Assembly (NCBI GenBank): GCA_038245785.1
Contig: JBBRSB010000025.1
Span: forward strand, 11,543 to 75,542
DNA: 64,000 nt
Direction of reading: 5' to 3'
DNA from: Gloeobacterales cyanobacterium
GTDB taxonomy: Bacteria; Cyanobacteriota; Cyanobacteriia; Gloeobacterales; PMM-0068
Positions 1,306-37,712 of this stretch are shown here, in pieces. Below the pieces are notes generated by a model, which had not been told where the DNA came from, did not search any database, and saw only the letters and a program-made list of their open reading frames with translations. The translations under genes and the position numbers were made by a program. How positions within the stretch are numbered: the stretch's first letter is position 1; every line of letters begins with the position of its first letter.

Positions 1306-1942
1306 AAGCTTGGCTCAAGAGTGAAGTCTTACACCATGAAAGTCATTGTAATCGCTTCATATAAGGTACTCAAATCAACAACCCAATCGCAGCAAGCTGC
1401 GGGGTATGCGCAGTCGTTTCTAGATCAAAAAGAACTGGGAAGGTAGCTCTTCTAGCCGATTTTAAGTGTGAATCAAAGATAAGAAAAAGAGCAAAATAAA
1501 GTGTAAGCGTCCACAGAATTTAAACTATGCAAACCCATTTAAAGTATTTCTCTATACATGGAAATTCATCAAATCTTTATAAAAACAGTATTCGCAACAT
1601 GCTAACTTTACCGACTACCTATATCTAAGCTCCACACGATTTCGGAAGGTTGAAATTTAGCTCCTCCATAAGATTTTCACTTGTTCATTTCGTAATCAAA
1701 CTTCAGAATTTTTATTTAAACCGAGCGATTAGAAAATACACTTCATCTCATTAACCGTACACAAAGGAGATCACTAGATTACCAGACCCATTTTAAGGTA
1801 TTCTATCCACATCTATCAGACACTGATGCACTTCAAATTTGAATCGGTGGCTGCTCGATAGGTTGCTGGTTCAGATGGCTGATCACGGTTCAAATTTGCT
1901 CGATTCAGTATTTTGCGTCCGATATTCAAAGTTGATTTTAGA

Positions 1943-7800: not shown

Positions 7801-9669
7801 GTGCTGGCTGACTATAACCCTATGGTGGAACTACGAAATCTCTCGGCCAGTAAGTTAGCAGAAACGCGAGAAAGTCTGTTTGGGAATTATCCAGGGTTGA
7901 GAGCGGCTTATCTGAGTGAATTTGAAGAAGCAGACGGGACGCAGAATTTTTTAAATGCGGTGCAGAATTATCCTCTGCTGAAAGGCATTCAGACGAATTT
8001 ATTTAAATGCTTTTTACCTCAGGCGTGGAGCTTTACGAAACCGGAAGGAGTGTCGGGATTTCTCCATCCTGAAGGTGTATATGATGACCCAAATGGTGGG
8101 CTACTGCGGCGAGAACTTTATTCCCGCTTGCGAGATCATTTCCAGTTTCAAAATCAGCTCATTCTTTTCCCAATCGGTCATAGGGTTAAATACAGCTTGA
8201 ATATCTATGGAAGTCAGCAATCGCCCTACTTCAAGACTATTGCAAATCTATTTACGCCAAAGACGGTCTCAGAGTGCGATGAACATAATGGCACGGGGGA
8301 GGTTGGCGGTATTAAAGATGAGTTGAACAATTGGAACTTCAATGGTCATCAACAGCGAATTATAGAGGTTTCTTTAGCTGAGCTAGACCTATTTGCAAAA
8401 CTCTACGACGAAGATGGGACAGCAGCAGATGAGGCTCGTTTACCTACGCTGCATTCAAGAAATCTGGTCAATGTATTACGAAAATTCGGTATTCAAGAGC
8501 AACGTCTTGGAAATCTGGAAGGGCAATATTTAGCACTTGAAATGTGGCATGAAACTAATACCCAGAAAGATGGAACGATTCGACGCGATACTCAATTTCC
8601 AGCATTGGCAACCGACCTAATTCTCTCTGGCCCCCATTTTTATGTTGGGACTCCCGTTTACAAAACGCCCCGTAATGTCTGTACAGAAAAAGGTCATTAC
8701 GACATCCTTGACCTCACCACCCTATCTGACGACTACCTGCCCCGTACTAACTACGTCCCTGACTGCGATCGCACTGAATACCGCCGCCGCACCCCAAAAG
8801 TCCCTTGGGGCGATAATCAACCCGTCACAGACTTTTATCGTTTGGTTTGTCGTAGGCAGTTGAGTCAATCAGGAGAAAGAACTCTAATTCCAACAATTGC
8901 ACCGAAAGGTTCTGCTCACATTCATCCAGTTATTTCAACAACCTTCCAAGACCAGAGTGCTTTGATAGCTTTTTGCGCTTTTTGCAGTTCAGTTATCTAC
9001 GACTTTTATATCAAAACGACAGGTAAAGGAGATCTTTACGAGTCAACTTTGCGGTTATTGCCATTACCAGAAGCTAACCCAGCGATTCGCCATCGTACCC
9101 TTGTCCTTAACTGTCTCACGACCTACTATGCCGATCTTTGGGTGGCCTGCTTTGATCCCACTTTTACTATTGACTGCTGGAGTAAACCTAACGATCCGCG
9201 TCTTGACCATGGCTTCTTCACTAAACTCACTCCCACCTGGCAGCGTAACTGTGCCCTCCGCAATGACTATGCCCGTCGCCAAGCCCTCGTCGAAATCGAT
9301 GTCCTCGTTGCAATGGCTCTCGGCCTTACCCTCGACGAATTAATCACCCTCTACCGCATCCAATTCCCCGTCATGCAGCAGTACGAGAGGGAAACCTTCT
9401 ACGACCAGACCGGACGCATCGTGTTCACGACCAGTAAGGGACTCGTTGGGGTCGGGGTTTCCCGTAAGGGCAACGCCAAACAAGGCATCATCGGCTGGGA
9501 AGACATTCAAGATATGACCAACGGCGAAGCCTCCATCCCTATCACTGATGACACTCTTCCTGGTGGCCCCATCGAACGCACCATCACCTACCAAGCCCCT
9601 TTTGATAAATGCGATCGAGTGGCCGATTATCGAACTGCCTGGGCCTACTTTGAGAATTTGTCAGATTGA
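4810..9669 (+). CDS. Large N6-adenine DNA methyltransferase (DrmMI / type IIG-like)
   Basis: YYTP, motif I VCEPAMGSAAF, motif IV GFDLMVGNPPW, FFHWELEF, and a C-terminal TRD-like region. 1619 aa. Confidence 0.92.
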   Translation: MALVGIANENEFYSAHYLDAILKEDLKGVAKHWQEATTAEKTPDQLLGSLRQCYFRLRDRLGRTKEPDENLALQREFFQSVLEILGYQWKPKLIVLQDDGLLPIVAEVSRSNEIPLLWILEGFNGTDEPSDVLSLTLDPVQFPQGATGDVSVSEGIAAIQGQTLEEILSDRVFAEDNPPRWVILLSVDQIVLVDRHKWSASRLLRFDLQELLREKDSDALLAAAKLLHREHTCPAEGSSLLDELDEKSHRHTYSVSEDLKFALREAIELLGNEALYYRRTVSKLRVFSTDVQLERGEREIDPNQLKVECLRWVYRLLFVFYIEARPELGYAPLKSDVYREGYSLESLRDLEQAELLTSVDENGNFIDASIRRLFKLLWEGYPSESSMQLDLQSSKETAIHNTFRLPALKSHLFDPARTAMLNGVKFRNTTLRRVLELMSLSRGEGKQRRGRISYAQLGVNQLGEVYEGLLSLSAFLAEEDLYEVQAVKQTTEATSDLDENIEVSKKSKKQNNHNELKVGYFVTASQLNEYEPEEWVLDPKTKKPRKHEKGKFLFRLKGRDRQKSASYYTPQSLTECLVKYALKELLQDKTADDILKLTVCEPAMGSAAFLNEVVDQLADAYLERKQDELEERIPHERITIEKQKVKMLLADRNVFGIDKNPIAMELAEVSLWLNSIYGDPDNPSRVFVPWFGLQLNCGNSLIGARRQVYRLKNVTGGNKGVAKWHEFAPERVPLGQALPEDGIFHFLLGDPGMANYADKVVKAMQPEAIKLIQEWQKEFAKAELTKEQAEYVLRLSRRIEDLWESYARELAQIRQRTTDPLTVWGQDRDGGKGDFVSRDDTPLEQKDKIYEQEKLSKGVQNAGAYRRLKLVMDYWCALWFWPIAEAEELPSREQFLQEVGAILGETEMLAPAIQQLVCFPETQAVEKGTLFLNTWGYVDLEKLKRFYPRLSLVEKLGEQHRFFHWELEFADLFLENGGFDLMVGNPPWIKVEWQEGGVLADYNPMVELRNLSASKLAETRESLFGNYPGLRAAYLSEFEEADGTQNFLNAVQNYPLLKGIQTNLFKCFLPQAWSFTKPEGVSGFLHPEGVYDDPNGGLLRRELYSRLRDHFQFQNQLILFPIGHRVKYSLNIYGSQQSPYFKTIANLFTPKTVSECDEHNGTGEVGGIKDELNNWNFNGHQQRIIEVSLAELDLFAKLYDEDGTAADEARLPTLHSRNLVNVLRKFGIQEQRLGNLEGQYLALEMWHETNTQKDGTIRRDTQFPALATDLILSGPHFYVGTPVYKTPRNVCTEKGHYDILDLTTLSDDYLPRTNYVPDCDRTEYRRRTPKVPWGDNQPVTDFYRLVCRRQLSQSGERTLIPTIAPKGSAHIHPVISTTFQDQSALIAFCAFCSSVIYDFYIKTTGKGDLYESTLRLLPLPEANPAIRHRTLVLNCLTTYYADLWVACFDPTFTIDCWSKPNDPRLDHGFFTKLTPTWQRNCALRNDYARRQALVEIDVLVAMALGLTLDELITLYRIQFPVMQQYERETFYDQTGRIVFTTSKGLVGVGVSRKGNAKQGIIGWEDIQDMTNGEASIPITDDTLPGGPIERTITYQAPFDKCDRVADYRTAWAYFENLSD

Positions 9670-9708
9670 GGGCATAGATAGAATTTCACACCCTAGAAGC
9701 ATTCCACC

Positions 9709-9885
9709 ATGACTTACTCGAACACCGACTACAAACACATCCAAATCGACGACAACTGCGTTCCCATCATTGAAGGAACCACCATGAAAGTTGCAGAACT
9801 GCTTACCTCTCATCTGACCTATGGCTGGAGTCCCGAAGAACTATATCAACTAAGTGCTGTATCTCTCCCTATAATCCTGTGGTGA
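9709..9885 (+). pseudogene. Truncated DUF433-family (antitoxin-like) gene inside the defence operon
   Basis: MTYSNTDYKHIQIDDNCVPIIEGTTMKVAELLTSHLTYGWSPEEL fits the DUF433 N-terminal pattern. The usual C-terminal helix is missing. Confidence 0.7.
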
Positions 9886-9889
9886 ACCT

Positions 9890-12800
9890 ATGATTCCATC
9901 CGTCGTCGCCACTGAACTGCGTAATTGCATTTCCGACTATTTGCGGACTACCTTCCGGCCCACCACGCCAGGGTTCGATAGCCTGATGGAGCGATTCATA
10001 GCAGTTCCGAGCAATGTGGGACGTGGCCCCTACGTTTCCATTGGTCTGCCCTTTCGTACTGGAACGATGGGCACCAACTACTTCCGTCACATTCCGATGG
10101 AGTTTGCTCCGCACCTGCATCAGGAACGAGCCTTCGACCGCCTCAGTCCTCCCTATTACCAATCAACGCTGATTGCCACCGGAACAGGCTCCGGTAAAAC
10201 CGAATGTTTTCTGTTGCCCCTCCTAGAGCATTGCCGCTTAAACATTGGAGAACCTGGCATCAAGGCGATTCTCATCTATCCCATGAATGCCCTCGCCACC
10301 GACCAATCTAAACGCATTGCCGACCTTATCCATAACACCCCTGCTCTCCAAGGCAAAGTCACTGCCGGACTCTATGTGGGCGATAGCGACGCAACCCCGA
10401 CCACGATGATGACCGCAGAAAAAGTCATCACCGAAAAGCGCATCATCCGCGAATCGCCCCCCGATATCTTGATCACCAACTACAAAATGCTGGACTACCT
10501 GCTCATCCAGCCTGACGCTCAAAAACTGTGGCGCTATAACCAACCCGAAACCCTGCGCTACATCGTTGTAGACGAATTCCACACCTTCGACGGTGCTCAA
10601 GGAACCGATCTCGCCTGCCTGCTCCGTCGCCTCAAATATAGGCTCAACACTCCGCCCCATCATCTTGCTTGCATCGGTACCTCCGCCACCCTAGGGGGCG
10701 AAGATAGCCGCAAAGATATGTTGAGTTACGCTGCCACCATCTTTCAAGAACAACTGGATGATGGAGTACTGATAGAAGAAGACCGTCAGACCGCCGCAGA
10801 GTTTTTGCAAGACGCCTTGCTCAATATCCTGCCCGTCCCAGACCCTGAAACCATCGCTCAACTCCAACCAAATGCACACCAGACTCCAGAGGCGTATCTG
10901 CGCACTCAAGCGCGACTGTGGCTGCAAGACAATGCGCCACAAGAAGAGAACCCTGCCCTGAGCCTTAGCGCGAACACTGCCCAGCAAAGTTTAGAAATTG
11001 CCCCCTCCCTGCAACAACTCGATCTGTCAGCCCCGAATTTGGACGCACCCCTCACAAACGAATGGCGAGTGCGACTGGGACTAGAACTGAAAACCCTACC
11101 GATCATCCAAATCTTAGTCCGAACGCTAAGGAACAGACCCCACAGCTATGACGAACTGACTGAAACCCTTCGTCGTCGTCTGCATTTCCCGAAGTGCGAT
11201 CGCCCAGAATACCTGCCCCTACTCCTGGATAGCCTCCTAGCGCTGGTTGCTACCGCAAAACGGCTAGATACCCGACCGGATGGCAAGAACCTCTATTTGC
11301 CTTGGGTGACCCTGCGCGTCCAGATTTGGCTAAAAGAGCTAAGACGGATGGTCGCTACCGTAGAGCCTCAACCTCGGCTCCTGTTCTCAAACGACCTTAC
11401 CCCAGAACAAGCAAAGAAAACTCTCCCCGTCGTTCACTGTCGAGACTGCGGTGCCACCGGATGGGCTGGGGTGCGTCCTGCCCAGGGCACTCAAAAATTA
11501 ACCCCTAATGACCTGAAACGCTTTTATCAAGAATTTTTTGGTCGCAAACCGCTTATCACCTTCTTATTCCCCAGCGATGCCAAGAACTCCGATACCCTTA
11601 AACTTTGCCCCGAATGCTTCGCCATCAATGGCCCAGGTGCCGAAGACTGTCAATCCTGCGGTTGGTCTGAACTCATTTCCGTCTATATTCCTAACTCCAC
11701 GCGCACCAATACCCAACAAGAGCAAAAACAACTTGAATCCCATAGCGATTGCCCCTTCTGCGGCAGTAGTAGCGGCTTGTCGATCTTGGGGGCGCAGGCT
11801 GCCAGCCTCACCAGCGCAATGATTGGAGTGTTATACACAACCCCCTTTAACTCGGATAAAAAACTTCTCACCTTCTCCGATTCTGTCCAAGATGCAGCCC
11901 ACCGTGCGGGATTCTTTGGCGCACGAACCTACAGAACCACCTTACGCACCGCCATCGCTCATACCGTCAGGACAGCTGCATCCGAAGGTCTTACCCTGCA
12001 AACTCTTGTAGAGCAGTTTTCAAGCTTTTGGCAGCAAAAGCTTGGTTCAAACGCAGATTATGTCGCCACATTTTTACCTACTGATCTGGAATGGTTACGA
12101 GATTGGGACGAATTTGTCCGTAGCGATCGCACCGAACTAGACCCGCATAGTAAGCTGCCAAAACTGCTGGATGACCGACTTACTTGGGAAATCGTCGCTC
12201 AATTCGGTCATCGTTCCGCTATTGGCCCTTCTCTTGAACGGAGCGGCACCTGCACTGTCAGCTTTGACCCTGCCCAACTTAAACAGGCGATTGATGACCT
12301 TCACCCCAAACTCGTCAATGAAGTAGAACCTCTGCGCCAAGTTCAACCGGATCGGGTGCGCCAATTTCTTTTTGGTTTGCTGCACCACTTGCGTCAGCGG
12401 GGCGGCATCCTCCAGGCTGCCACGCAGAGCTACATCAGTCAGGGCGGGATTACGTACCTCTTACAAAAACCCCTGTTCATGCCTCGCATGGGACCAAGGA
12501 TTCCAGCCCCTATCTTTTGGGTTAACGCCTCGGCCCAGAGCGATCGCTTCGAGAAAGTAATTCAAACGGGACCACGCAGAAGTTGGTGCGAAGACTGGAC
12601 AGCACGAATTTTTGCTTCAGCGAGTCTCCTGCTCAATGATCAAGTCATCGACGTGCTGCATATGTCCCTCGATGCGATGGAGAATGCTGGACTGCTAGAA
12701 AGCCTACCTTGCGGCAATGGTAAAGCCTGGGGTATCCCCATGTCGTCTCTATGGATAGAGCTGGAAGGGACCATTCTCGCCTGTGATCGCTGTTCCCATC

Positions 12801-15800
12801 AGTTGACTGCAAGCATCACAGAGCATTCAAGTCTTGAGGGGATGGCCTGTCTAAATCTGGGTTGCATCGGACACTACCGCCCTAACTCTCGTATCGGACT
12901 AGCCTACTACCGAAATCTTTATCGAAGCGGCGATGTTCGACGCATTATGGCCGCAGAGCATACGGGACTTCTCACACGGGAAAATCGAGAACGCTTGGAG
13001 CAACGGTTTATCGACGGCAATCGTCGCTGCGACCCCAATCTGCTATCTGCTACCTCCACCTTGGAAATGGGTATAAACATTGGTGATCTGTCCTCGGTGC
13101 TGCTGTGTTCCGTTCCACCTGGACCCGCCAACTTCCAGCAGCGCATCGGTAGGGCAGGGCGAAAGGATGGCAATTCCTTTGTCGGGACGATTGCCAATGG
13201 AAAACCTCACGATCTTTATTTCTATGAAGATCCGATGCAAATGATTGCTGGGAGCGTTGATGCGGCTGGATGTTATTTAGATGCTTCAGCCATCCTAGAG
13301 CGGCAATTAACCGCATTTTGTCTGGATAACTGGGTCTCAACCCATATGTCAACACAGGATTTTCCCAGAGCGCTCCAGGATGTGCTGAATGCGATCGAGC
13401 GCAGAGACATGAGCCGCTTCCCTTATAACTGGCTGCACTTTATCCAAGAGCGTCAGGGAGCATTGCTAGAAGCGTTTCTTAAACTTTTCCAGGACGCTAT
13501 TGAAGATAGAACCGTCAACCAGCTTCGTACCTTTATGGAACGAGGAGAACAAGACGAGGGAGGACTTCGCTGGCGAATTTTAGATCGACTAGATGGAGTT
13601 CGACAGGAACGAACCCGGCTCAGCAGTCAGATTAAGAACATCACGGGCAAAATCAAAAAAATTAAGGAAGAACCTCCTGCGCTCCAAGATCCTGAGCGCC
13701 TTGACGAACTGGATCGTGAGCGGTCTAGCTTTAGACAACTGATGCGCGAGATTAACGATAAACATATCCTCAACTTTCTGACCGATGAGGGGCTTTTACC
13801 AAACTATGCTTTCCCAGAGTCAGGCGTAACGCTGCGCTCAATTCTGTGGCGAAAGCGTCAACAAGTTGAAAAATCCGGTGGCAGCAGTTACGAAACGTTC
13901 ACGCTAACCTACGAGCGACCAGGGGCACTAGCCATCAGAGAATTAGTGCCAAGCGGCGTATTCTATGCAGAAGGACGACGGGTAACAATCGATCAAATTG
14001 ACCTGAAACTGTCCGAACCCGAAGATTGGCGGATGTGTCGCAGTTGTAGCTATACCGTCCGAACCACGCAGCCCGAAGCCAATGCTCCATCTTGCCCAAG
14101 GTGCGGAGATTCTATGTGGCGCGATCAGGGTCGTGTCAGACGGATGTTGCGCCTGCGCCAGGTGATGGCATCTACTTCCGACAAAGGCAGCCGTTTTGGA
14201 GATGATCGGGAAGACCGCAACACAGGCTTTTTTCAGCGGCATTTGCTGGTGGATTTTGAAGCCAAGGATCGTGAAAAGACCTTTCTGATTCAGGACAAAG
14301 AATTTCCCTTTGGTATTGAGTACATTTCTCGAACCAATTTTCGGGAGGTCAATTTAGGGGAGTCGTTGTCTACGGGTGAATCCGTTGAGCTATCAGGGCA
14401 GCGTTTTACAACACGAGGATTTCGAGTCTGTAAAAGCTGCGGCAAAGTCATGAAAGGGAATGAACCCAAGGATCATGCTATCAACTGCCAATGGCGAGAT
14501 AAACCCGACCAGGCAAAGGCAGAAGAGGTGTTATACCTCTACCGGGAGTTCGCCTCTGAAGCCATTCGGATATTGATGCCCGATGAAAATTTTTGGACCC
14601 CTCAAGGGCTACATTCCTTCGTAGCGGCACTACAACTGGGCTTGAAGCAAAAATTTCGGGGCAAAGTGGATCACCTTCATGTCACGATTTCCGGTGACCC
14701 TCAGGCTAATTCAAACCTCCGAAAGTCCTATTTGTATCTGTATGACAGTGTGCCAGGGGGGACAGGCTACTTGCGACAGCTTATCCGCAACCCCGACGAA
14801 TTGCTGGATGTTTTTAACCGTGCCCTATTGGTGTTGAGAGCCTGCGGCTGTGAAGACGGCTGCTATAAATGCCTGTTAGCCTATCGCAACAGCTTTGACC
14901 AAGATGAAACCAGTCGCCAAACGGCGGTTAGGCTGCTCGCGCAGCTTGTAAAACACTGGCCTCAGCTAAAGGAAACTTCAGAAGGGCTATCGGCCATTCG
15001 ACTCAATAGCAACTTTGAAAGCGAACTAGAACGAAGGTTTATCGAAGCCATTCGACGCTACAGCGGGGAGGTGTACCAAGGTTCAACTCCGCTGTTACGC
15101 AAAGACATCATCAATGGGAAGGCGGGATATTACCTAAAAATTGGCGAAGCAGCCTGGTTTATTGAAACCCAGGTTAACCTGAACCAGAATGACGGAGTCC
15201 AAATCCCATCCAGAGCCGATTTTCTCTTCAGACCAGCATCTACCCGTTCTTCGAGTCACCCGATCGCCATTTTTACGGATGGCTGGGAATACCATCAGGA
15301 TAGGATTTTTGAAGATTTCAAGCAGCGTTTAGCCATTGTGCGAAGCGGTCAATTCTGGAGCTGGTCTTTGACTTGGGACGACGTTGAAAAGCAACTGAAC
15401 CCAGATAGCCTCATCAATCGTCCTGAGGGACTAAAGTGCCAACTCAATTCTCAGTTCAACAGGAACAGCCATCAAGTTTACCAACAGTATCAGTGCGATG
15501 GAATGCGCGACTTAGAGCCTCGCAGCAGCTTTGAATGGCTTATGAGCTTTCTGGCTCAGCCCGATCTCAAACAATGGCAAAACTGGGCACTTTTGAGAAC
15601 TATGGCGCAAGCCCATGCTCAATCCCTCCAAGACAGTGCCATCCAGAAGCAGTGGCAAGGCCAGGTGGTTCAGGTGCTGGGCGAGGAGCCTATTGATGTG
15701 TGGGAGCCATCTTCAAGATTTTTGAACACTGAAGTTCAGGTTTCGGCAGAGCTGAAGATCTGGAGCGGTGCAGATGTAATCCGTCATAAGAATTTGGAAC

Positions 15801-16309
15801 AAACTGGTAGCTTTGTTTTGCTAAGTCTTGACGACCGGAAACAGTCTGACTCCTCATCGTTTCGCGGTAGTTGGGTAGAGAGTTTAAGGCTGTTTAACCT
15901 CTATCAATTTCTTCCCCATTTTTATCCTGTCACGACATCCATGGTGGATAAGGGGTACAGCCCTGCCTTGGCTCGTCCAGACACCGCCACGCTGTCGGCA
16001 GTTCCCACCTATCAAGAGGCTCCATGGAAGGAACTGCGGGAACTAACGGGAGTGGACAATTTGCTACCGGCCATCGACCGTATGGAAAAAGAGAAATGGC
16101 CAGTTCCAGAGCCGGGGTATGAACTGATGGGTAAGCGCGGAGCAGTCGTAGCAACCGCAGAGCTTGCTTGGCAAACTTTTAGAGTCGCTGTAACCCTCAC
16201 GCAAGAGGATCTAGATGAATTTACAAACGAAGGTTGGACCGTGATCGACTGCGAAGAACTTTGGTCGTCAATGGACATCCTTGGCAAGAAACTGAAGGGA
16301 GAAGCATAA
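9890..16309 (+). CDS. YprA/MrfA-like DEAD/DEAH helicase with DUF1998 Zn-binding domain and a C-terminal PD-(D/E)xK-like nuclease (fused DrmA+DrmB / DruE-like)
   Basis: ATGTGSGKTE, YPMNALATDQ, VVDEFH, TSTLEMGINIG, QRIGRAGR, several CxxC pairs, YDSVPGGTGY...CGCEDGCYKCL, then ESELERRF...RADF...IFTDGWEYH. 2139 aa. Confidence 0.9.
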   Translation: MIPSVVATELRNCISDYLRTTFRPTTPGFDSLMERFIAVPSNVGRGPYVSIGLPFRTGTMGTNYFRHIPMEFAPHLHQERAFDRLSPPYYQSTLIATGTGSGKTECFLLPLLEHCRLNIGEPGIKAILIYPMNALATDQSKRIADLIHNTPALQGKVTAGLYVGDSDATPTTMMTAEKVITEKRIIRESPPDILITNYKMLDYLLIQPDAQKLWRYNQPETLRYIVVDEFHTFDGAQGTDLACLLRRLKYRLNTPPHHLACIGTSATLGGEDSRKDMLSYAATIFQEQLDDGVLIEEDRQTAAEFLQDALLNILPVPDPETIAQLQPNAHQTPEAYLRTQARLWLQDNAPQEENPALSLSANTAQQSLEIAPSLQQLDLSAPNLDAPLTNEWRVRLGLELKTLPIIQILVRTLRNRPHSYDELTETLRRRLHFPKCDRPEYLPLLLDSLLALVATAKRLDTRPDGKNLYLPWVTLRVQIWLKELRRMVATVEPQPRLLFSNDLTPEQAKKTLPVVHCRDCGATGWAGVRPAQGTQKLTPNDLKRFYQEFFGRKPLITFLFPSDAKNSDTLKLCPECFAINGPGAEDCQSCGWSELISVYIPNSTRTNTQQEQKQLESHSDCPFCGSSSGLSILGAQAASLTSAMIGVLYTTPFNSDKKLLTFSDSVQDAAHRAGFFGARTYRTTLRTAIAHTVRTAASEGLTLQTLVEQFSSFWQQKLGSNADYVATFLPTDLEWLRDWDEFVRSDRTELDPHSKLPKLLDDRLTWEIVAQFGHRSAIGPSLERSGTCTVSFDPAQLKQAIDDLHPKLVNEVEPLRQVQPDRVRQFLFGLLHHLRQRGGILQAATQSYISQGGITYLLQKPLFMPRMGPRIPAPIFWVNASAQSDRFEKVIQTGPRRSWCEDWTARIFASASLLLNDQVIDVLHMSLDAMENAGLLESLPCGNGKAWGIPMSSLWIELEGTILACDRCSHQLTASITEHSSLEGMACLNLGCIGHYRPNSRIGLAYYRNLYRSGDVRRIMAAEHTGLLTRENRERLEQRFIDGNRRCDPNLLSATSTLEMGINIGDLSSVLLCSVPPGPANFQQRIGRAGRKDGNSFVGTIANGKPHDLYFYEDPMQMIAGSVDAAGCYLDASAILERQLTAFCLDNWVSTHMSTQDFPRALQDVLNAIERRDMSRFPYNWLHFIQERQGALLEAFLKLFQDAIEDRTVNQLRTFMERGEQDEGGLRWRILDRLDGVRQERTRLSSQIKNITGKIKKIKEEPPALQDPERLDELDRERSSFRQLMREINDKHILNFLTDEGLLPNYAFPESGVTLRSILWRKRQQVEKSGGSSYETFTLTYERPGALAIRELVPSGVFYAEGRRVTIDQIDLKLSEPEDWRMCRSCSYTVRTTQPEANAPSCPRCGDSMWRDQGRVRRMLRLRQVMASTSDKGSRFGDDREDRNTGFFQRHLLVDFEAKDREKTFLIQDKEFPFGIEYISRTNFREVNLGESLSTGESVELSGQRFTTRGFRVCKSCGKVMKGNEPKDHAINCQWRDKPDQAKAEEVLYLYREFASEAIRILMPDENFWTPQGLHSFVAALQLGLKQKFRGKVDHLHVTISGDPQANSNLRKSYLYLYDSVPGGTGYLRQLIRNPDELLDVFNRALLVLRACGCEDGCYKCLLAYRNSFDQDETSRQTAVRLLAQLVKHWPQLKETSEGLSAIRLNSNFESELERRFIEAIRRYSGEVYQGSTPLLRKDIINGKAGYYLKIGEAAWFIETQVNLNQNDGVQIPSRADFLFRPASTRSSSHPIAIFTDGWEYHQDRIFEDFKQRLAIVRSGQFWSWSLTWDDVEKQLNPDSLINRPEGLKCQLNSQFNRNSHQVYQQYQCDGMRDLEPRSSFEWLMSFLAQPDLKQWQNWALLRTMAQAHAQSLQDSAIQKQWQGQVVQVLGEEPIDVWEPSSRFLNTEVQVSAELKIWSGADVIRHKNLEQTGSFVLLSLDDRKQSDSSSFRGSWVESLRLFNLYQFLPHFYPVTTSMVDKGYSPALARPDTATLSAVPTYQEAPWKELRELTGVDNLLPAIDRMEKEKWPVPEPGYELMGKRGAVVATAELAWQTFRVAVTLTQEDLDEFTNEGWTVIDCEELWSSMDILGKKLKGEA

Positions 16310-18460
16310 ATGAGTTTAGAGAACACATTCCGCCTAGCCATCTCGGATGAATTCTTTGATGCCTACAGTCGATTACCTCGAAATGCACAAGGCAAGGTAT
16401 CGGAATTCATTAACCGCTTTCGGCAAGATCCAACCCGACCAGGGCTTAATTACGAATCGATTCGCGATGGTCAAGACAAACGAATCAAGTCGGTGAGGGT
16501 TGACCAAGCGCATCGGGCTATCCTTCTTAAACCTGATACAGGCAACGTTTACATACTGCTTTGGGTAGATAAGCACGATGATGCGTACACTTGGGCACGG
16601 CGTAAGAAATGCCTTGTTAACCAAGTTTCTGGTGCGTTACAAATTATTGATATTGAGGCTGCCGAAGCAACTACAGAGCAACTCATCCAAAAAAATACTG
16701 GAGAATCGGAAAAGCGCTTTGACACTATTGAAGATAAGTATTTGATGCTACTTGGTGTTCCTGAAATATTGCTTCCTGCTGTTCGTCAAATTGTAACAGA
16801 TGAAGATTTAGAGCAGTTACTCCCCCATTTGCCTAGAGAAGCAAGTGATGCATTGCTCATGTTGGCAGTTGGCTATGAACTTGAAGAAGTCTTAAAACAG
16901 CAGCAAAAGACAGACGAGAAGGTAAAGGTTGATCCTGAAGATCTTGAAACGGCTCTAGAAAATGATGATAGCCGTAGCCGATTCGTTGTGATTACGGATG
17001 ATGCAGATTTAGAAGAAATGCTTGCGGCTCCCTTAGAAAAGTGGCGTGTGTTTCTGCATCCTTCTCAGCGGAAGCTAGTTGAACGGGATTGGAATGGTCC
17101 GGTTAGAGTTTTAGGCGGAGCAGGAACCGGAAAGACGGTTGTGGCGATGCATCGTGCAAAGTGGTTAGCCCAAAATCGTTTCACAGAACCGAGCGATCGC
17201 ATTTTGTTCACCACCTTCACCCGTAATTTAGCCATCGATATTGAGGCTAATCTCAAGGCCATTTGTTCTCCTGAATTGATTCGTCGTATTCGTGTCATCA
17301 ATCTAGACGCATGGGTTGCAGAGTTCCTTAGACAAGAAGGAGTTGAGGTTCGAATTGTTTATGAGGAAGAGACTCAAGAAATTTGGCAACAGGCTTATAC
17401 TCTGGCCCCTGTCGAGCTTGGGTTTTCACAAAGCTTTTATCAGCAGGAATGGCATGAGATTGTCTCCGAACAAAACTGTCAAACTTTGCGCGACTATCTT
17501 GTAGCTCGACGGACCGGTCGTGGGACTAGATTGAGCCGTCAGCAAAGACAATTGATTTGGCCAGTTTTTGAGGAATTTAGGAATCTGTTGCGAGAAAAAG
17601 GTTTCAGAGAACCAGACGGTGCAATGCGTGATGCAGCCGAACTATTAGCAGATAGAGGAACCGAAACACTGCCCTATAAATCCATCATCGTAGATGAAGC
17701 TCAAGATATGAGCGAAGCGGCTTTCTCGCTTCTTCGGGCAATTGTAGGTGAGCCTAAGAAAAATGATTTGTTTATTGTTGGAGATGCCCATCAGCGGATT
17801 TATGGAAGAGTAGCGATTCTAAGTCGATGTGGGATCGATGTTCGAGGAGGTCGTTCTCGAAAACTTCGCTTAAACTATCGAACAACTGATGAAATCAGGC
17901 GCTGGGCCACAGCCGTGCTAGAAGGCGTAGATGTAGACGATTTGGATGGTGGAGCAGATTCTCTAAAAGATTATCGTTCCTTAATGCATGGTGAAGAACC
18001 AACATTAAGCGGCTTTAGTAGATTTGAGGATGAAATTTCTTACTTGAGGAAATTTCTGGAACAGATAAAGGTCAATGAAAATACCCTTTCAGGCGTTTGT
18101 CTTGCAGTTAGAACAAATGCTCTAGTGGATCAATATGAATCAGCACTCAAAAATATTGGCATTGCTGTTCGACGGCTCCAGAGAGATAAGCCTGATAACC
18201 CGTTGGACGAGGGCTTAAGACTTGCAACTATGCATCGAGTTAAAGGTTTGCAGTTTAACTACATTCTATTACCTGGACTGAATGCTGATATTCTGCCTTT
18301 AGAGTCCGTCTTCAACCAAAATGAAGACAAAGTAACTCAAACTCGTTTTGTCGATGGAGAGAGATGTCTTTTGCACGTTGCTGCAACACGCGCTAAGAAA
18401 CAAGTCTTTATTAGTTTCTATGGAGAACCAAGTTTATTCTTGAAATACCCAAATCGTTAA
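16310..18460 (+). CDS. UvrD-like SF1 helicase with an N-terminal RelE/ParE-like domain
   Basis: GGAGTGKT, IIVDEAQD, VGDAHQRIY, LNYRTT, TMHRVKGLQF, LHVAATRAK. The N-terminus (FFDAYSRLP...PGLNYESI...SVRVDQAHRAIL...LLWVDKHDDAY) has a RelE-like pattern. ATG immediately follows the upstream stop. Confidence 0.88.
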   Translation: MSLENTFRLAISDEFFDAYSRLPRNAQGKVSEFINRFRQDPTRPGLNYESIRDGQDKRIKSVRVDQAHRAILLKPDTGNVYILLWVDKHDDAYTWARRKKCLVNQVSGALQIIDIEAAEATTEQLIQKNTGESEKRFDTIEDKYLMLLGVPEILLPAVRQIVTDEDLEQLLPHLPREASDALLMLAVGYELEEVLKQQQKTDEKVKVDPEDLETALENDDSRSRFVVITDDADLEEMLAAPLEKWRVFLHPSQRKLVERDWNGPVRVLGGAGTGKTVVAMHRAKWLAQNRFTEPSDRILFTTFTRNLAIDIEANLKAICSPELIRRIRVINLDAWVAEFLRQEGVEVRIVYEEETQEIWQQAYTLAPVELGFSQSFYQQEWHEIVSEQNCQTLRDYLVARRTGRGTRLSRQQRQLIWPVFEEFRNLLREKGFREPDGAMRDAAELLADRGTETLPYKSIIVDEAQDMSEAAFSLLRAIVGEPKKNDLFIVGDAHQRIYGRVAILSRCGIDVRGGRSRKLRLNYRTTDEIRRWATAVLEGVDVDDLDGGADSLKDYRSLMHGEEPTLSGFSRFEDEISYLRKFLEQIKVNENTLSGVCLAVRTNALVDQYESALKNIGIAVRRLQRDKPDNPLDEGLRLATMHRVKGLQFNYILLPGLNADILPLESVFNQNEDKVTQTRFVDGERCLLHVAATRAKKQVFISFYGEPSLFLKYPNR

Positions 18461-28445: not shown

Positions 28446-29255
28446 ATGATACAAGACAAGTTGCCAGAAAAAGTCTTAGATTGGTGCAAAACAAACGAAT
28501 GGTCAGAACCATTTCGCCAAGATGGGCTGTACTGGGGTTTTGCTCTTGGCTCAGTTATTCCACTGCCACTGCCCCTTCCACAAAAATCTCATGAAAGGTA
28601 CTTTTTAAATCAATACGCGGAATCAATAAAGACTGATCCTACCTGTAAATTTCTCGCTGAAAGCTTTCCAACGGATTTTGCAGCCTGGTTGCTCAGTGAA
28701 CGAATAGCCCTAATGCCACTTGGTTTAAGTGAACTGAGTTCGCAATATATTGAAGCAGATTCATCAGTTTTGCTGGATTCAGACAAGGTGCTTTTGCACA
28801 TCGAATTTTATGTCGAACCAGACCCTTGGATTCCTTTCAAGATGATAGATTACCACCTGAGAATCCACCACTGTTTCCCTGAAAAACAAATGCGCCAATT
28901 CGTCATATATTTAGCTCCTACAGATTCTGATCTCGTTCACCAGACTGTGTTTGAGACTGAGAAGATGCGGCACGAATTTCAGGTTATCCGTCTCTGGGAG
29001 CAGTCCACTCAAGCCTTTCTAGAATTGACGGGATTATTACCCTTGGCTGTGCTCACACAGACCTCAGACAAGGCGCAAACTCTGAGACAAGTGGCATCAC
29101 GGATTGATGCAATTCCAGAAATGCTTATTCAGAGTAATGTGGCCGCATCTGTCTCGATTCTTGCTGGGTTAACTCTGGAAAGAGACTTTATCAATCAAGT
29201 TCTACAGAAGGAAATCATGCAGCAGTCTGTAATTTATCAAGAAATGCAGAGATGA
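28446..29255 (+). CDS. Rpn/YhgA-like PD-(D/E)xK protein with an N-terminal extension and truncated C-terminus
   Basis: DPTCKFLAESFPTDFAAWLL...EADS...LHIEF...VIRLWEQ...QQSVIYQE. It stops before the usual DUF4351-type tail. Confidence 0.7.
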   Translation: MIQDKLPEKVLDWCKTNEWSEPFRQDGLYWGFALGSVIPLPLPLPQKSHERYFLNQYAESIKTDPTCKFLAESFPTDFAAWLLSERIALMPLGLSELSSQYIEADSSVLLDSDKVLLHIEFYVEPDPWIPFKMIDYHLRIHHCFPEKQMRQFVIYLAPTDSDLVHQTVFETEKMRHEFQVIRLWEQSTQAFLELTGLLPLAVLTQTSDKAQTLRQVASRIDAIPEMLIQSNVAASVSILAGLTLERDFINQVLQKEIMQQSVIYQEMQR

Positions 29256-31933: not shown

Positions 31934-32890
31934 ATGAGTATTTCTACTCAAATCCAATACATTCCCGCTCGTAAAGCTTCTTTGGATCTGCTCCAAGATG
32001 TTTCCCTAAACAGGCATCCCGTTGTCGTTTATCTGGCTCGTCTATCCCCTGGTTCCGTCCGGACCATGCTCGGTGCCCTGAATACGATGGCCGAAATCCT
32101 CAGTTCTGGTCGTCACCATGCCCTTACCCTTGATTGGTCTCAGATTACCCACCATGAAACAGACCTCCTAGCCAGCCAATTGAGACTCCGATACGCACCC
32201 GCTACCGTCAATAAATTCCAGGCCGCGCTCAAGGGTTGCTTAAAACAATACTGGCGGTCTGGAATGATAACGGACCAGCAATATCATCGGGCCGTTGATG
32301 TTCCTTCTGCCCGTGGCACAAGTCCCCCCAAAGGACGAGCCCTTAGAGAGGAAGAAATCCAGACCCTCTTTGCCTATTGCGCTGGGGATACCCCCTGTCA
32401 AATCCGCGACCGTGCACTCCTCGCTATCCTCTACGGAGGGGGTCTGCGTCGGGCTGAAGCTGCTGCTGCGATGGTGGAAGATTATGACCTTGTGACCGGA
32501 GCCCTCAAAATAATGCATGGGAAGGGGGACAAATACCGGATGGTCTACCTTGCAGGGAACCTTCATCTCAGTCTAGTTCGCTGGTTAGACCTGCGCAGTC
32601 CTATCCCAGGCCCTCTGTTGCTGAGAGTAAAAGGGGGTCAGGTTCTGCCCTATCCGATAACCCCCCAAGCTATTTTGAAGATTCTCCAAAGATTGGCTGA
32701 AAAAACTGAAGTAGACAGTTTCTCCCCCCATGATTTGAGGCGGACTTTCATTACCGAATTGATTGCCCGAGGAGGGGATCTGTTCTCTGTCCAGGGCCTC
32801 GCGGGACATGCCGACGTTAAAACTACAGCACGCTATGACCGAAGGGGAGAAGAAGCTAAGCGGAAGACCGCAGCGCTCCTCGATGTATAA
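31934..32890 (+). CDS. Tyrosine recombinase (XerC/D-like, not IntI)
   Basis: Catalytic residues R (LYGGGLRRAE), K (HGKGDK), HxxR (PHDLRRT), H (LAGHAD) and Y (TTARYD). No IntI-specific insertion between the K and HxxR motifs. Confidence 0.93.
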   Translation: MSISTQIQYIPARKASLDLLQDVSLNRHPVVVYLARLSPGSVRTMLGALNTMAEILSSGRHHALTLDWSQITHHETDLLASQLRLRYAPATVNKFQAALKGCLKQYWRSGMITDQQYHRAVDVPSARGTSPPKGRALREEEIQTLFAYCAGDTPCQIRDRALLAILYGGGLRRAEAAAAMVEDYDLVTGALKIMHGKGDKYRMVYLAGNLHLSLVRWLDLRSPIPGPLLLRVKGGQVLPYPITPQAILKILQRLAEKTEVDSFSPHDLRRTFITELIARGGDLFSVQGLAGHADVKTTARYDRRGEEAKRKTAALLDV

Positions 32891-33155
32891 AGGGCTAAAG
32901 ATAGCGTTGATAACGGTAAATTGAGTTTCCATGCCCCAGACCTAGCTGTATTGCTAGCCGAGCATACACTGAGTATATTTACCCGATTTGATTACGCGAA
33001 CGCCTAGATAAATTGTATCGAACTACACATACGTTTCTAGTTTGTCTCCAGTACCGTATACCTAGTTTTCTCAATATTAATTACATAAATACCTGTCTGT
33101 GCTGTCTATCCTTACAACTCGAGTGATATTTTCCCCTTGGAGATATCCAGAAGCT

Positions 33156-33174
33156 GTCTAATCACTGGTTAGGC
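33156..33174 (+). other. attI-like simple recombination site
   Basis: GTCTAAT-CACTG-GTTAGGC, i.e. L box, 5-bp spacer, GTTRRRY R box. The R box is the exact complement of the R'' (GCCTAAC) of the first attC. Confidence 0.65.
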
Positions 33175-33286
33175 TAGAGAAATGTTCAGGTGCCTCGTGA
33201 AATTCATCGTAATTCACAGATATTCCGATGACCTAAATTCGATTCCGTAGCTACCTTGTCGATTCTTTCTTATAGTGAGACTAACA

Positions 33287-34075
33287 ATGGCAAATCCAAA
33301 TGTAGCGTTCTATGTGACAGCCCATCAGGACGACTGGCAGTTCTTCCGTGGCGAACAGGCTTACCAAGACTTGACTACAGGCGACACGAGGATAGTTTTC
33401 ATCTACACGACTGCCGGCGACGACAAGATGCTTCCTGGCTGGTGGGAGGCCAGAGAGAAAGGGGCCATTGCTTCGATTCGCAAAGCGATTCCAGCAGCAC
33501 CCTTATTGTTCAATACGGCGGACATTAACGGACACCGAATCGCAAAATTTAGCTGCGGCAACAGCGTCAGTTATTGTCTTCGCCTTCCAGACAATGATGC
33601 CCCCAACTCCCTTGAGAACTTAAGGGCGGGAGTTATTAGCTCACTCCGTTCTGTCGACGATTCAGCGGTCTACAGAGACTGGGAGGACTTTGTATTTACA
33701 CTCAAAGCAATCCTGGCCATTGAAACACTGGGAGGGAACAACGCTCATCCGTGGGTTAATGCACCCGATTACAACGCCACAAGAAATCCCGGCGACCACG
33801 CTGACCACAAGGCAACCGCAGACGCCCTACAAACGTTCGTCTCAGAATTTTACAACCGAGCTTGGTGGGCAACGTATGATACCAGCAATAGGTCGCCCAA
33901 TCTGTCGGGATCTCGTCTGGCTCAGAAGCGTGCAATGTTTGATGCCTACTCGAACGAGGTACTCTCCCAGACGACCGCAAATGGTGTTCCACACAGTCCC
34001 AATGAAACCGAATGGAATTGGTGGGGAGATAAGAGTTACGTTACGCTCAGAGCTTTTAATACTGATGATGATTAA
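33287..34075 (+). CDS. PIG-L/LmbE-like deacetylase (gene cassette 1)
   Basis: VTAHQDDW, YTTAGD, REKGA, RLPD and DHADH metal-binding motifs. Followed by an attC site. Confidence 0.8.
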   Translation: MANPNVAFYVTAHQDDWQFFRGEQAYQDLTTGDTRIVFIYTTAGDDKMLPGWWEAREKGAIASIRKAIPAAPLLFNTADINGHRIAKFSCGNSVSYCLRLPDNDAPNSLENLRAGVISSLRSVDDSAVYRDWEDFVFTLKAILAIETLGGNNAHPWVNAPDYNATRNPGDHADHKATADALQTFVSEFYNRAWWATYDTSNRSPNLSGSRLAQKRAMFDAYSNEVLSQTTANGVPHSPNETEWNWWGDKSYVTLRAFNTDDD

Positions 34076-34173
34076 TCGCGACTTAGGCAATTTTGCCGGT
34101 GGATAGACAAACAGAGCCGTAGCCGTTGGGGTGCGGAACGAACCCCGCAATTTCCAACCAACAAAACAAACTG

Positions 34174-34242
34174 GCCTAACAAACCGTTCGAGCGGACGCG
34201 GGCGATAAAGTCGCCCGCGTCCGCTCAACGCTGGCGTTAGAC
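34174..34242 (+). other. attC site (69 bp)
   Basis: GCCTAAC...CGTT(C)GAGCGGACGCGGGCGA-TAAAG-TCGCCCGCGTCCGCTCAACG...GTTAGAC: RYYYAAC and GTTRRRY ends around a long palindrome with one extrahelical base. Confidence 0.92.
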
Positions 34243-34343
34243 CGCCTAAGGTGCCTGTAAGGACTTAGCCAAAGGATATTTGTGGAGTGCTCGGTTCAAG
34301 TCACGAAGTTATAGAATTACCATCATTATGGCTGGGAAAAATT

Positions 34344-35687
34344 ATGGCTGGGAAAAAGCTCCTGCACTTTATTAGCAAAGTGGCCACTTTTCTGTTTGCT
34401 TTGCTATTTACTTTAAATTACTTGAGTTCTAACGCTCAGGCTCAGGTTAGTGATGCAGACCTAATTCAACTACGCTCAAGTATTCATTCATGGGCTAGGG
34501 ATTTTGTTTGCGAGGGTATTACACCTACCAAAAAACCCAGCAACTGCCCAGACAAAGGCGGCCCAGATAACGGTGGTTCTGAGGTTGGCGACTCAATATT
34601 ATTTAGCTCACTCCTTTGCTACAGCGTTGAAAACTGGGCATGCCAAAATATTCCTGCATCTAAGGATGAGCAAGGTGGTATGTGGAGATCACCGCAGAGA
34701 CTACGTAGTCGGAGCGATGGAAGCTGGGGTAATGCCCGCTTTTCACAAGACCACATGATAGGTGTTTTGTTATATCTGGTGACTGAGTACAACAGAGGAA
34801 ATGTTGAGTCGGCTCGATCCTTCGCCAATCACTGGGGATCTTGGATGGCTAATCATCTTTCACAAGGTGAGTTCTCTCTGTGTGATTGGGATTGGACTGA
34901 CCTAGAGGCGATGGATTCATGTGCTTTGGAGGGCGACATTTTTGGTGCTCGTGCCGCGATGATTCGGCGAGTCTTCGACCATATTGGAGCCAATTCGCCT
35001 GAAAGGCGTTGGCGAGTTGGTGGAATTATTCCAACTTGGAGATCATATCGTCTCGGTGATAGACGTGATCCTCATGATTATCTTGGTTATCTAAATAATA
35101 TTTGTGCTTTGGCTCCAAGCAGGGGTAAGAAATTTAATTGTCACTTGCCGAGTGTCACTTCTTTGATCTTTCAAGAAATGGGAGATAACCAGAGGTTAGG
35201 GAGTATAGATGAAGGATTTAGAGAAAATCCATTTGTCTTGTGGGTAAACAACGGTCGGCAAGCAAACAATCAAATTCGTAAGCTCACGTTAGATCGCTGT
35301 ACAGTTGCTGATGCAGCTCATAGAAGTGGAAGTAATACACACCAACAATGGGCTTGGGAACGTTCTCAATTTGAAGCCACACCGCCTTGGAGAAACTCCT
35401 TCGGTTGGGATTGTGTTACGATGATTAATTTGCTAAAGCCAAACCCCTCAGTACGAGCACATCAAGTTATCGGTAATAGTGGCTGGACTGGGTCTATTGC
35501 TGTTGATGATGGATATGTTTACCTGGCAACAAGTGAAGGACAGTTGAGAAGGGGTAGAATTTCCTCTTCAGTTGTAACTGAACTAATTGGCAATGGTGGC
35601 TGGATTGGGTCTATTGCTGTTGATGATGGATATGTTTACCTGGCAACAAGTGAAGGACGGTTGCTGCGTGGGCGTGTTAATCCCTAA
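34344..35687 (+). CDS. Secreted hypothetical protein with two C-terminal ~39-aa repeats (gene cassette 2)
   Basis: Signal peptide ending in AQA, a Cys/Trp-rich core, and the repeat IGNxGWxGSIAVDDGYVYLATSEG twice. Confidence 0.75.
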   Translation: MAGKKLLHFISKVATFLFALLFTLNYLSSNAQAQVSDADLIQLRSSIHSWARDFVCEGITPTKKPSNCPDKGGPDNGGSEVGDSILFSSLLCYSVENWACQNIPASKDEQGGMWRSPQRLRSRSDGSWGNARFSQDHMIGVLLYLVTEYNRGNVESARSFANHWGSWMANHLSQGEFSLCDWDWTDLEAMDSCALEGDIFGARAAMIRRVFDHIGANSPERRWRVGGIIPTWRSYRLGDRRDPHDYLGYLNNICALAPSRGKKFNCHLPSVTSLIFQEMGDNQRLGSIDEGFRENPFVLWVNNGRQANNQIRKLTLDRCTVADAAHRSGSNTHQQWAWERSQFEATPPWRNSFGWDCVTMINLLKPNPSVRAHQVIGNSGWTGSIAVDDGYVYLATSEGQLRRGRISSSVVTELIGNGGWIGSIAVDDGYVYLATSEGRLLRGRVNP

Positions 35688-35820
35688 AAGTGTTTAGGAT
35701 CGCAAACAAAATAACATCCTCATTTCAAAACCTAAATATGTTGCGGTGGGCGAAGTTCGTCGTAACGTATTTGGGTTTTATTTAATTTGTGATCCTTACA
35801 GCAATTACTAGTCGTGTGCG

Positions 35821-35895
35821 GTCTAACAACCTGGCTGGAGCGGACTGTTGAGGGATATTGGTGTTACTTGCAGCCGCTCAGCCAGAACGTTAGCC
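35821..35895 (+). other. attC site (75 bp)
   Basis: GTCTAAC...CTGGCTG(G)AGCGG(A)CTG...CAGCCGCTCAGCCAG...GTTAGCC with two extrahelical bases. Its R'' GTCTAAC complements the GTTAGAC at the cassette's 5' end. Confidence 0.9.
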
Positions 35896-36012
35896 GCTAC
35901 GCCTCTATCCGTCTTTCTGCTTCGTTTTGAGTCTTTTTGGTTGACTCGTTTGTAGATTTTACATAAGGGCACCTCGAAAAATTGATTTGACTCCCAAAAT
36001 CGATGGCTGAAA

Positions 36013-36444
36013 GGGGTTGTAAGCCCAAACCGGCGGAATTTGTCCAGCTCACCAAAAGTCAGGCTTTTGAACTGCCCCCTGCTTGTGCAGTTCGCCGACC
36101 ATCTGAGCACCACTATGCACTCCACGGATTGATGATGGCGACGCCGGACGCTTCGAAGGGGGCCGCGTGATGCCACGATGAAGCCCCGCGAGGCTGCAAT
36201 TGCGGCGATGTACCCATCAGGCGTTGGGAAGCCTCGCCCGCTAGTCTTGGCCATCACGACCAGCTCGGCATAGCGCCGTGCTGCACTGGTGTCGAATGGC
36301 AGCACCTGCACTTCCTTGGACACTAAGCATTCCGCGACAAACGGAGACCGATTGATTTGGAAGCTATTTTGGCTGAGATTGACTGGGAGTAGCTAACGAT
36401 TTGGCCTGTTTGGACGAATTCCGCCGGTTTGGGCTTACAACGCC
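36013..36444. mobile_element. Non-autonomous element bounded by Tn3-family-like inverted repeats
   Basis: Left end GGGGTTGTAAGCCCAAACCGGCGGAATTTGTCCA; right end reverse complement GGCGTTGTAAGCCCAAACCGGCGGAATTCGTCCA (30/31 identical core). No transposase and no 5-bp target duplication. Confidence 0.7.
36110..36311 (-). pseudogene. VapC/PIN toxin C-terminal fragment
   Basis: VLPFDTSAARRYAELVVMAKTSGRGFPTPDGYIAAIAASRGFIVASR, after which the frame degenerates. Confidence 0.75.
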
Positions 36445-36769
36445 GGCTACCACCAATAAACACATCAACGCCCTCCGTGGGTGCCTGAAAGAATGCTGGA
36501 AAATGGATCTTATCGACACGAAGGATTATCACAAGGCCATCGATCTGAAGAGAGTCCGTGCCACCACCTTGCCCAAAGGACGAGCACTTGCACATGAGGG
36601 GATTACTGCTCTATTGGTCGTTTGTGATGGCGATGAACCTTTCCAGGTGCGGGATAGCGCACTACTTGCATTACTTTATGGTTGTGGGTTGCGTCGGGCA
36701 GAAGTTGTTGCTATCCAAGTGGAGCACTACAGTCCTGTCACGCTGACACTCAGCTCACCCAGAAGATGA
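36445..36769 (+). pseudogene. Internal fragment of a second tyrosine recombinase, paralogous to 31934..32890
   Basis: ATTNKHINALRGCLKECWK...LPKGRAL...RDSALLALLYGCGLRRAE. The 5' end is cut at the IR, and the K/HxxR/Y region is missing. Confidence 0.85.
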
Positions 36770-37390: not shown

Positions 37391-37415
37391 ATTCTCGTCA
37401 TGAACGGCTACAATC

Positions 37416-37459
37416 ATGCACAATTGTTCATATCTATACTCCATGAGTATTTCTACTCA
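37416..37459 (+). repeat. Copy of the recombinase leader and first codons (31906-31950)
   Basis: atgcacaattgttcatatctatactccATGAGTATTTCTACTCA versus atgcacaactgttcatattttattttcaATGAGTATTTCTACTCA. Confidence 0.7.
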
Positions 37460-37712
37460 GTTAGCTGCCCCTGACCTCTTCATTGAATTGACTAGTTGCA
37501 TAAGTTTTAGCTATCAGTCCTGAAAACCCACGGACTATATGCGCGTAGTTGCATAGGTCGTGGCAAAAGTGAGAATGTCGCCCTTGAAATGACAACCATC
37601 ATCACCCTCAATGCCCTCCTCTATAATCTTTAGAGTTAATTGTAACAACCCATCTATTGACATAGATGTTTTATCTTATCGCCTATACCCCGTACCTGAT
37701 ATGCTCTTAGGC

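Follow-up and report, generated by a model that had tools for sequence, protein, structure and literature searches.

The window analysed here, a stretch of 64,000 nucleotides from a Gloeobacterales cyanobacterium (genome G000, contig C25, positions 11543–75542; an assembly of 255 contigs), carries two integron-type gene cassettes behind a tyrosine recombinase gene. We find that this locus is, in all likelihood, a CALIN (attC sites grouped together without an integron-integrase) with a retained attI, i.e. the true attI left behind when an ordinary integron lost its long-form intI. Decay of an ordinary integron is the best-supported origin, and it was missing from the options of a first-pass annotation of the same DNA, which had proposed either a landing pad serviced in trans or a platform tied to a Xer-like recombinase. 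What is unusual is that many such integrase-less capture sites are scattered in G000 and its relatives. The features on which this reading depends are the following.

31934–32890, plus strand: Xer/Cre-like tyrosine recombinase, 318 aa (PF00589; below all NCBIfam cut-offs)
33088–33174, plus strand: orphan integron platform (~87 bp) with the old intI start position, promoter region, and attI
33088–33090, minus strand: position of the start codon of the lost long-form intI, now decayed
33102–33117, plus strand: LexA-box-like 16-mer, CTGT-N8-ACAA, 66 bp left of the crossover
33156–33174, plus strand: attI core, with L box GTCTAAT, spacer CACTG, and R box GTTAGGC (33168–33174); crossover between 33168 and 33169
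33168–34235, plus strand: cassette 1 (1068 bp), ORF 33275/33287–34075, PIG-L/LmbE-like deacetylase
34174–34242, plus strand: attC1 (69 bp), R'' GCCTAAC ... R' GTTAGAC
34236–35888, plus strand: cassette 2 (1653 bp), ORF to 35687, protein without an assigned family
35821–35895, plus strand: attC2 (75 bp), R'' GTCTAAC ... R' GTTAGCC

The attI consists of an L box, a 5-bp spacer, and an R box of the form GTTRRRY, and conservation stops at the crossover. Its L box starts at 33156, 265 bp past the recombinase stop (32890), exactly where the first-pass annotation had placed an attI-like site. The two ORF-attC cassettes that it described also hold, with the first seven bases of each being the exact complement of its own attC R'' (2 of 2 cassettes). 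The bottom-strand hairpins of attC1 and attC2 are stable (z of −8.3 and −5.3), and 0 of 200 shuffles fold as well. Heuristic attC finders were noisy, returning 40 and 83 candidates of which many were false, so a covariance model was built instead from 17 sites of G000 itself; matches to these training sites, which include both window sites, are circular. Over the window, only attC1 and attC2 pass E 1 with this model, and a genome-wide run in which 150 of 552 candidates were scored yields 38 sites in G000, the 17 training sites included. With two attC sites and, as the sole IntI-profile match on C25, a recombinase that stays below the cut-off, the locus is a CALIN; no intI adjoins the attI, as it would in a complete integron. 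No remnant of intI is found in the window by tblastn (E ≤ 1), an Rfam search of the window gives no match, and a scan for a Pc promoter over 32880–33300 finds 2 sites where 1.0 is expected, i.e. no clear Pc.

The platform recurs well beyond the window. Specifically, the 400 bp that follow the recombinase match two other contigs of G000: C38 at 93% across 84 bp and C5 at 85% across 82 bp. Each of these matches ends at the core and is followed by cassettes and attC sites, and the upstream recombinase ORF is present in neither. Among 41 genomes searched, 7 have the platform, with clear copies in G001, G002, G003, and G007. Families f1 and f2 comprise 7 genomes, and a bipartite platform pattern matches 15 times in 6 of them, against 0 for a reversed control; the other 394 genomes give 6 matches, against 4 for the control. 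Two of these 6 (G137 and G330) are true platforms by profile, as is another in G020, and attC sites lie downstream in G137 and G020.

The identity of the site follows from the closed genome G003, where a homologue of the window attI stands at the head of an array, with the intact intI of that integron divergent from it (155.4–157.1 kb), and shares both the core and the upstream block with the window platform. The integrase of this integron is a 439-aa long-form IntI with a long N-terminal extension, scoring over the cut-off (TIGR02249, 265 bits), and G003 has two truncated intI copies besides. An alignment of 13 rows, including the window and the G003 attI region, spans ~87 bp with 26 invariant columns; column conservation is 0.75–0.94 inside the platform and 0.94 in the core, and amounts to 0.40 right of the core and 0.57 at the old intI start. 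Other copies keep pieces of the lost gene. For example, C38 retains 24 C-terminal codons of the long intI (87.5%) fused to the decayed start, a G002 platform (C46) retains residues 1–43 of the long IntI, and a G001 platform (C309) residues 2–18. In both the G002 and the G001 copy, the match is to the beginning of the long IntI, so that the platform's left edge corresponds to the intI start codon on the opposite strand. Because the platform recurs without the recombinase, corresponds to the attI of an intact integron in G003, and has copies that keep scraps of intI, the locus is read as a CALIN that arose by intI loss.

In 12 of the 13 aligned rows, a CTGT-N8-ACA(A/G) box stands 65–66 bp to the left of the crossover, with 1–3 mismatches to CTGT-N8-ACAG. 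The LexA box of proteobacterial intI promoters resembles the window 16-mer, and cyanobacterial LexA reportedly uses another motif (PMC3108266). Judged from its sequence and position, the box is probably a relic of an intI promoter operator. A lexA match is absent in G003 and G009 and present in G000–G002, and one may speculate that loss of repression favored the deletion of intI.

The course of events would then be as follows. A long-form intI, divergent on the minus strand and starting near 33090, would have been deleted, leaving the promoter region, the attI, and a short array. Recombination of attC x attI by a canonical IntI would have brought in both cassettes, the footprints being observed and the enzyme presumed, and the array would now sit on a plasmid-like contig beside an unrelated backbone recombinase, as one of many orphan platforms in G000 and its relatives. 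As attC recognition is broad, the cassettes could probably still be excised by the intact IntI of G000, and new insertion at this attI would need a compatible IntI in trans.

Several points weigh against this account. With no intI sequence left in the window, deletion in place is indistinguishable from the arrival of a platform that was already truncated. The sole intact IntI in the assembly is only 43% identical to the long form, and IntIs are reported to be specific for their cognate attI (PMC2095811). The window cassettes have no second copy in G000, and the 255-contig assembly could hide a long-form intI. Lastly, the closest orthologues of the window recombinase are 87–89% identical to it, and the loci examined in context are only 39–51% identical.

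The adjacent recombinase invites a different explanation, i.e. a noncanonical integron run by this co-oriented Xer-like enzyme, as the first-pass annotation had considered. The gene lies close to the attI (265 bp), its catalytic residues are all kept (R173, K197, H266, R269, H292, and Y301), and relics of its paralogues lie on the far side of the array. However, the IntI-specific insertion near patch III is absent (a gap of ~35 residues against two IntIs) and the protein reaches 69 bits against the 265 of TIGR02249, so that the annotation was right to keep it apart from IntI. The check that the annotation proposed, whether homologues are repeatedly followed by attC arrays, gave a negative answer, so that on the comparative side its own condition for refuting this option holds. 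For this search, 5 loci from genomes and 80 kept of 508 metagenome loci gave 85 homologue loci, of which 49 have at least 1.4 kb of downstream sequence, and 8 plasmid loci brought the total to 93, all 39–51% identical to the window recombinase. The attC model finds no downstream site in any of the 85 and no site in the 8 plasmid loci, and the platform profile has 0 matches across the 93; in the same search, the model recovered 18 sites in 10 platform loci. A single homologue locus, on a metagenome contig (L123), has an attC match, a solitary and canonical-looking site at L123:484–554, 3.1 kb 5' of the recombinase.

The family itself is large (2897 matches among 8000 scored), and 281 plasmid records match. 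In the 8 plasmid records viewed, genes for Rep/primase, ParA, Uma2, or DUF4351 are among the neighbors of the recombinase, which is also its setting in the window. In the genomes G001, G002, G003, G005, G007, and G009, no recombinase match is found at E ≤ 1e-25; the recombinase as a single-protein query of genome contigs returns two weak, irrelevant loci, and the viral contigs searched contain no relative of it. Going by sequence and gene neighborhood, the window recombinase belongs to a family common on cyanobacterial plasmids and is a neighbor of the array rather than its integrase, being probably a resolvase-type enzyme of the plasmid backbone. Given this, and an attI that traces to an IntI integron, we consider it most unlikely that the Xer-like enzyme runs the array. 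A secondary site (attG) that merely resembles attI might also have received the cassettes, as cassette insertion by IntI occurs at many GWT sites, a process that may create small CALINs (bioRxiv 10.1101/2022.09.11.507474). Yet the 84-bp element stands in front of more than one array and has homology to a genuine attI region, and its exact 16-mer core is found twice against 0.002 expected per genome, leaving an attG origin very improbable.

A further question is whether orphan platforms are still in use. BLAST with platform sequences gives 28 candidates in G000, falling into five types; the L-spacer-GTT core is intact in 17 and decayed in 11. In a strict automatic check, the first attC matches in 5 of the 17 intact-core candidates, one of them through a wrong site, and by eye the match is exact at C52, C8, both C5 platforms, and C43, with one mismatch at C3. 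On one account, which we see as an even call, integrons were serially gained and decayed as whole units on islands and plasmids, and the orphan platforms are dead and slowly eroding. This would explain five platform types with intI scraps at differing stages of decay, the truncated intI copies of G003 beside a tRNA-like site, and a window array whose right end is cut off by a repeat-bounded element; intI pseudogenes, intragenomic duplicates, and multiple integrons are moreover common (PMC2426708). It sits less well with the intact core and intact attC folds of the window, or with a nearly identical cassette at a G003 site that lacks intI.

That cassette is the main evidence for a refinement of the preferred reading, namely that orphan attI platforms are working pads on chromosome and plasmid, supplied with cassettes in trans by one intact IntI, a reading that we rate as plausible yet on the doubtful side. 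G003 has 9 sites with the window-type core and a single intact intI beside the two truncated ones. At 776 kb, an orphan attI has as its first cassette a close copy of cassette 3 of the intact array, which lies 620 kb away at 158 kb; the two share 98.1% identity across 751 bp, counted from the crossover, and no trace of intI lies beside the 776-kb site. This sharing suggests servicing in trans, although it may also stem from homologous recombination or from two captures out of one pool. Conservation of the core (0.94) while the old intI start decays (0.57), a G020 platform with attC lying 670 kb from its intact intI, and the 17 intact cores in G000 point the same way. On the other side, no near-identical cassette is common to any of the 18 G000 array regions compared, 11 of the 28 cores are decayed, and the closed genome G137 has a platform with two attC matches and no IntI over the cut-off.

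A search of the window's own genome for intI, which the first-pass annotation had called for, recovered an intact copy on C2 (480 bits), along with a broken one on C8 and several fragments. Thus, its landing pad serviced in trans is plausible, with an intact intI on another contig and a contig that looks plasmid-like; the C2 enzyme, however, is a short-form IntI of another lineage than that of the window attI, i.e. noncognate, and at the contig start an IS-like end interrupts the attI region that belongs to it. Overall, it is a tentative and rather unlikely proposal that tens of integrase-less attI platforms of several lineages, on chromosome and plasmid, keep their competence and receive cassettes in trans from one resident IntI whose attI specificity is relaxed, with the window showing one such pad on a plasmid-like replicon. 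A single sequencing run was found to match, none of RNA being listed, and its contigs show no joint that indicates excision or an empty site, which tells little either way.

The cassette products offer modest leads. The cassette 1 product matches Pfam PF02585 at E 5e-5, below the cut-off, and PIG-L clusters of the Atlas score 0.96. The cassette 2 protein has an N-terminal hydrophobic stretch and two C-terminal repeats (an internal repeat was found), with a weak SSL_N match only in Pfam and a best Atlas score of 0.84, which is a lead only. To the right of the array lie these further features.

35889–36012, plus strand: stub of a third unit, or the original right flank, without attC
36013–36444, no strand assigned: element with 34-bp inverted repeats (36013–36046 and 36411–36444; 94% alike) around a minus-strand vapC/PIN relic
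36401–36769, plus strand: paralogous recombinase relic (54% identical across 100 aa), truncated at the right inverted repeat

No R'' that matches the third-unit core is found up to 39000. The inverted-repeat element sits between the array, which it cuts, and the paralogue relic; a fuller version is present on another contig of the sequencing run, and its GGGG end is reminiscent of Tn3-family ends. The relic of a second recombinase paralogue that the first-pass annotation reported here is real. A further segment at 37391–37475 resembles the upstream sequence and first codons of the recombinase (short start at 37446) and forms a third paralogue stub. These relics would reflect a rearranged plasmid region.

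Contig C25 looks plasmid-like from its gene content, with DUF3854 (a match at the cut-off), ParA-like, SSB, and DUF932 genes; DUF3854 marks cyanobacterial Rep proteins (CyRepA; PMC10079941). Elsewhere in the window, small genes lie downstream of several RHS/YD-repeat ORFs at 38094–59936, an arrangement reminiscent of polymorphic toxin-immunity regions, and 1913–18457 holds four genes for a SNF2 helicase, an Eco57I-type methylase, a DEAD/MZB helicase, and a UvrD helicase (Pfam). We take the latter cluster to resemble a DISARM/BREX-type defence locus.

Other platforms and arrays show features of their own. The C38 array is flanked by a 272-bp direct repeat (91%; C38:22311–22582 and 28525–28796), which is the end of an ABC-permease-like gene. 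Platforms are nested in arrays right after attC at 153.1–154.1 kb of G003 (L075:10100–11130), with a reverse-oriented toxin-antitoxin-like gene pair at the place of intI, and at 56.7–57.1 kb of G000 C5 (L014). The G003 intI directly follows an attC core. Movement of the platform as a composite cassette was considered and is not supported, as no downstream attC with a matching R'' occurs among the listed G003 sites and the left edge in the window has no GTTR core. The two truncated G003 intI copies, at 3,497–3,498 kb and 3,523–3,524 kb (L167 and L168), end at nearly the same codon by the tRNA-like sequence, in a region where a pair of ~37-bp repeats with one spacer looks like a mini CRISPR array. 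Two G000 arrays (L068 and L069, on C81 and C213) consist of near-identical 90-bp attC repeats with short cassettes, compared with mixed attC sites elsewhere. A 140-bp sequence (99–100% alike) abuts attC-like R'' ends at three contig starts (C30, C31, and C48) and occurs at the ends of C43 and C54; it is likely to be an insertion element that targets attC and interrupts the assembly. The IS-like end, which we presume to be IS110-like, lies inside one platform type at three places: C2 (L001:1–150, by the only intact intI), the end of C53, and C7:26192–26339.

Some candidates were set aside as chance. The attI pattern matches at least 117 viral stretches; the 80 fetched have no attC and no platform profile match better than E 0.16, and serve as a negative control. 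Several of 17 loci with a one-mismatch core (e.g. L191 and L194–L199) have neither the upstream block nor attC. A recombinase-like relic by the G137 platform is not counted as an association, being broken, on the opposite strand, and at E 0.035.

Earlier work already describes CALINs, including that they arise by loss of intI and may be used in trans (PMC4889954, PMC9668308, and PMC12444791). The CALINs of PMC4889954 resemble the window locus in having two attC sites, no intI nearby, and an IntI elsewhere in the genome, and intI loss is among the origins listed there, as exchange in trans is among the proposals. The window CALIN differs in that it keeps a recognizable attI and intI-promoter block, which can be traced to a named lineage of IntI. 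Outside class 1, attI is poorly described and escapes IntegronFinder (PMC9024848), and for this reason retained attI sites in CALINs have not been surveyed. We found no report of tens of orphan attI platforms per genome, or of integrons of this lineage, in a search that left most subscription journals and supplements outside its reach; IntegronFinder tables may list some of these CALINs. If the orphan platforms are active, many CALINs are working insertion sites rather than debris, and a single integrase can build arrays in many locations, among them a plasmid able to carry them away. Defined pairs of site and enzyme would then allow a direct test of how CALINs originate, in a phylum whose integrons have received little study. 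If the platforms are dead, the locus is a decayed integron of the ordinary sort, which would still supply new attI sequences for tools that are blind to them.

Among known systems, the tyrosine recombinases of cyanobacterial plasmids (e.g. AP018275.1 and NC_019762.1) are 42–48% identical to the window enzyme and have the same Rep/primase-ParA-Uma2-DUF4351 surroundings; their function is annotated by family only and, unlike the window, 0 of 8 loci have attC nearby. The sedentary integrons of Xanthomonas (PMC12444791) are similar to the window case in that intI is lost or truncated while arrays are kept, with extra CALINs elsewhere and one on a plasmid. Their platform, however, stays at one locus (ilvD), whereas platforms of several lineages are scattered over ~28 places in G000. 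The delta-attI-type cassettes of class 1 and 2 integrons (PMC12901181) carry still recombinogenic pieces of attI inside arrays, which compares with the nested attI sites of G003 and G000 C5. By contrast, delta-attI are short attI ends that close cassettes in mobile integrons, while in the window a full platform heads the array.

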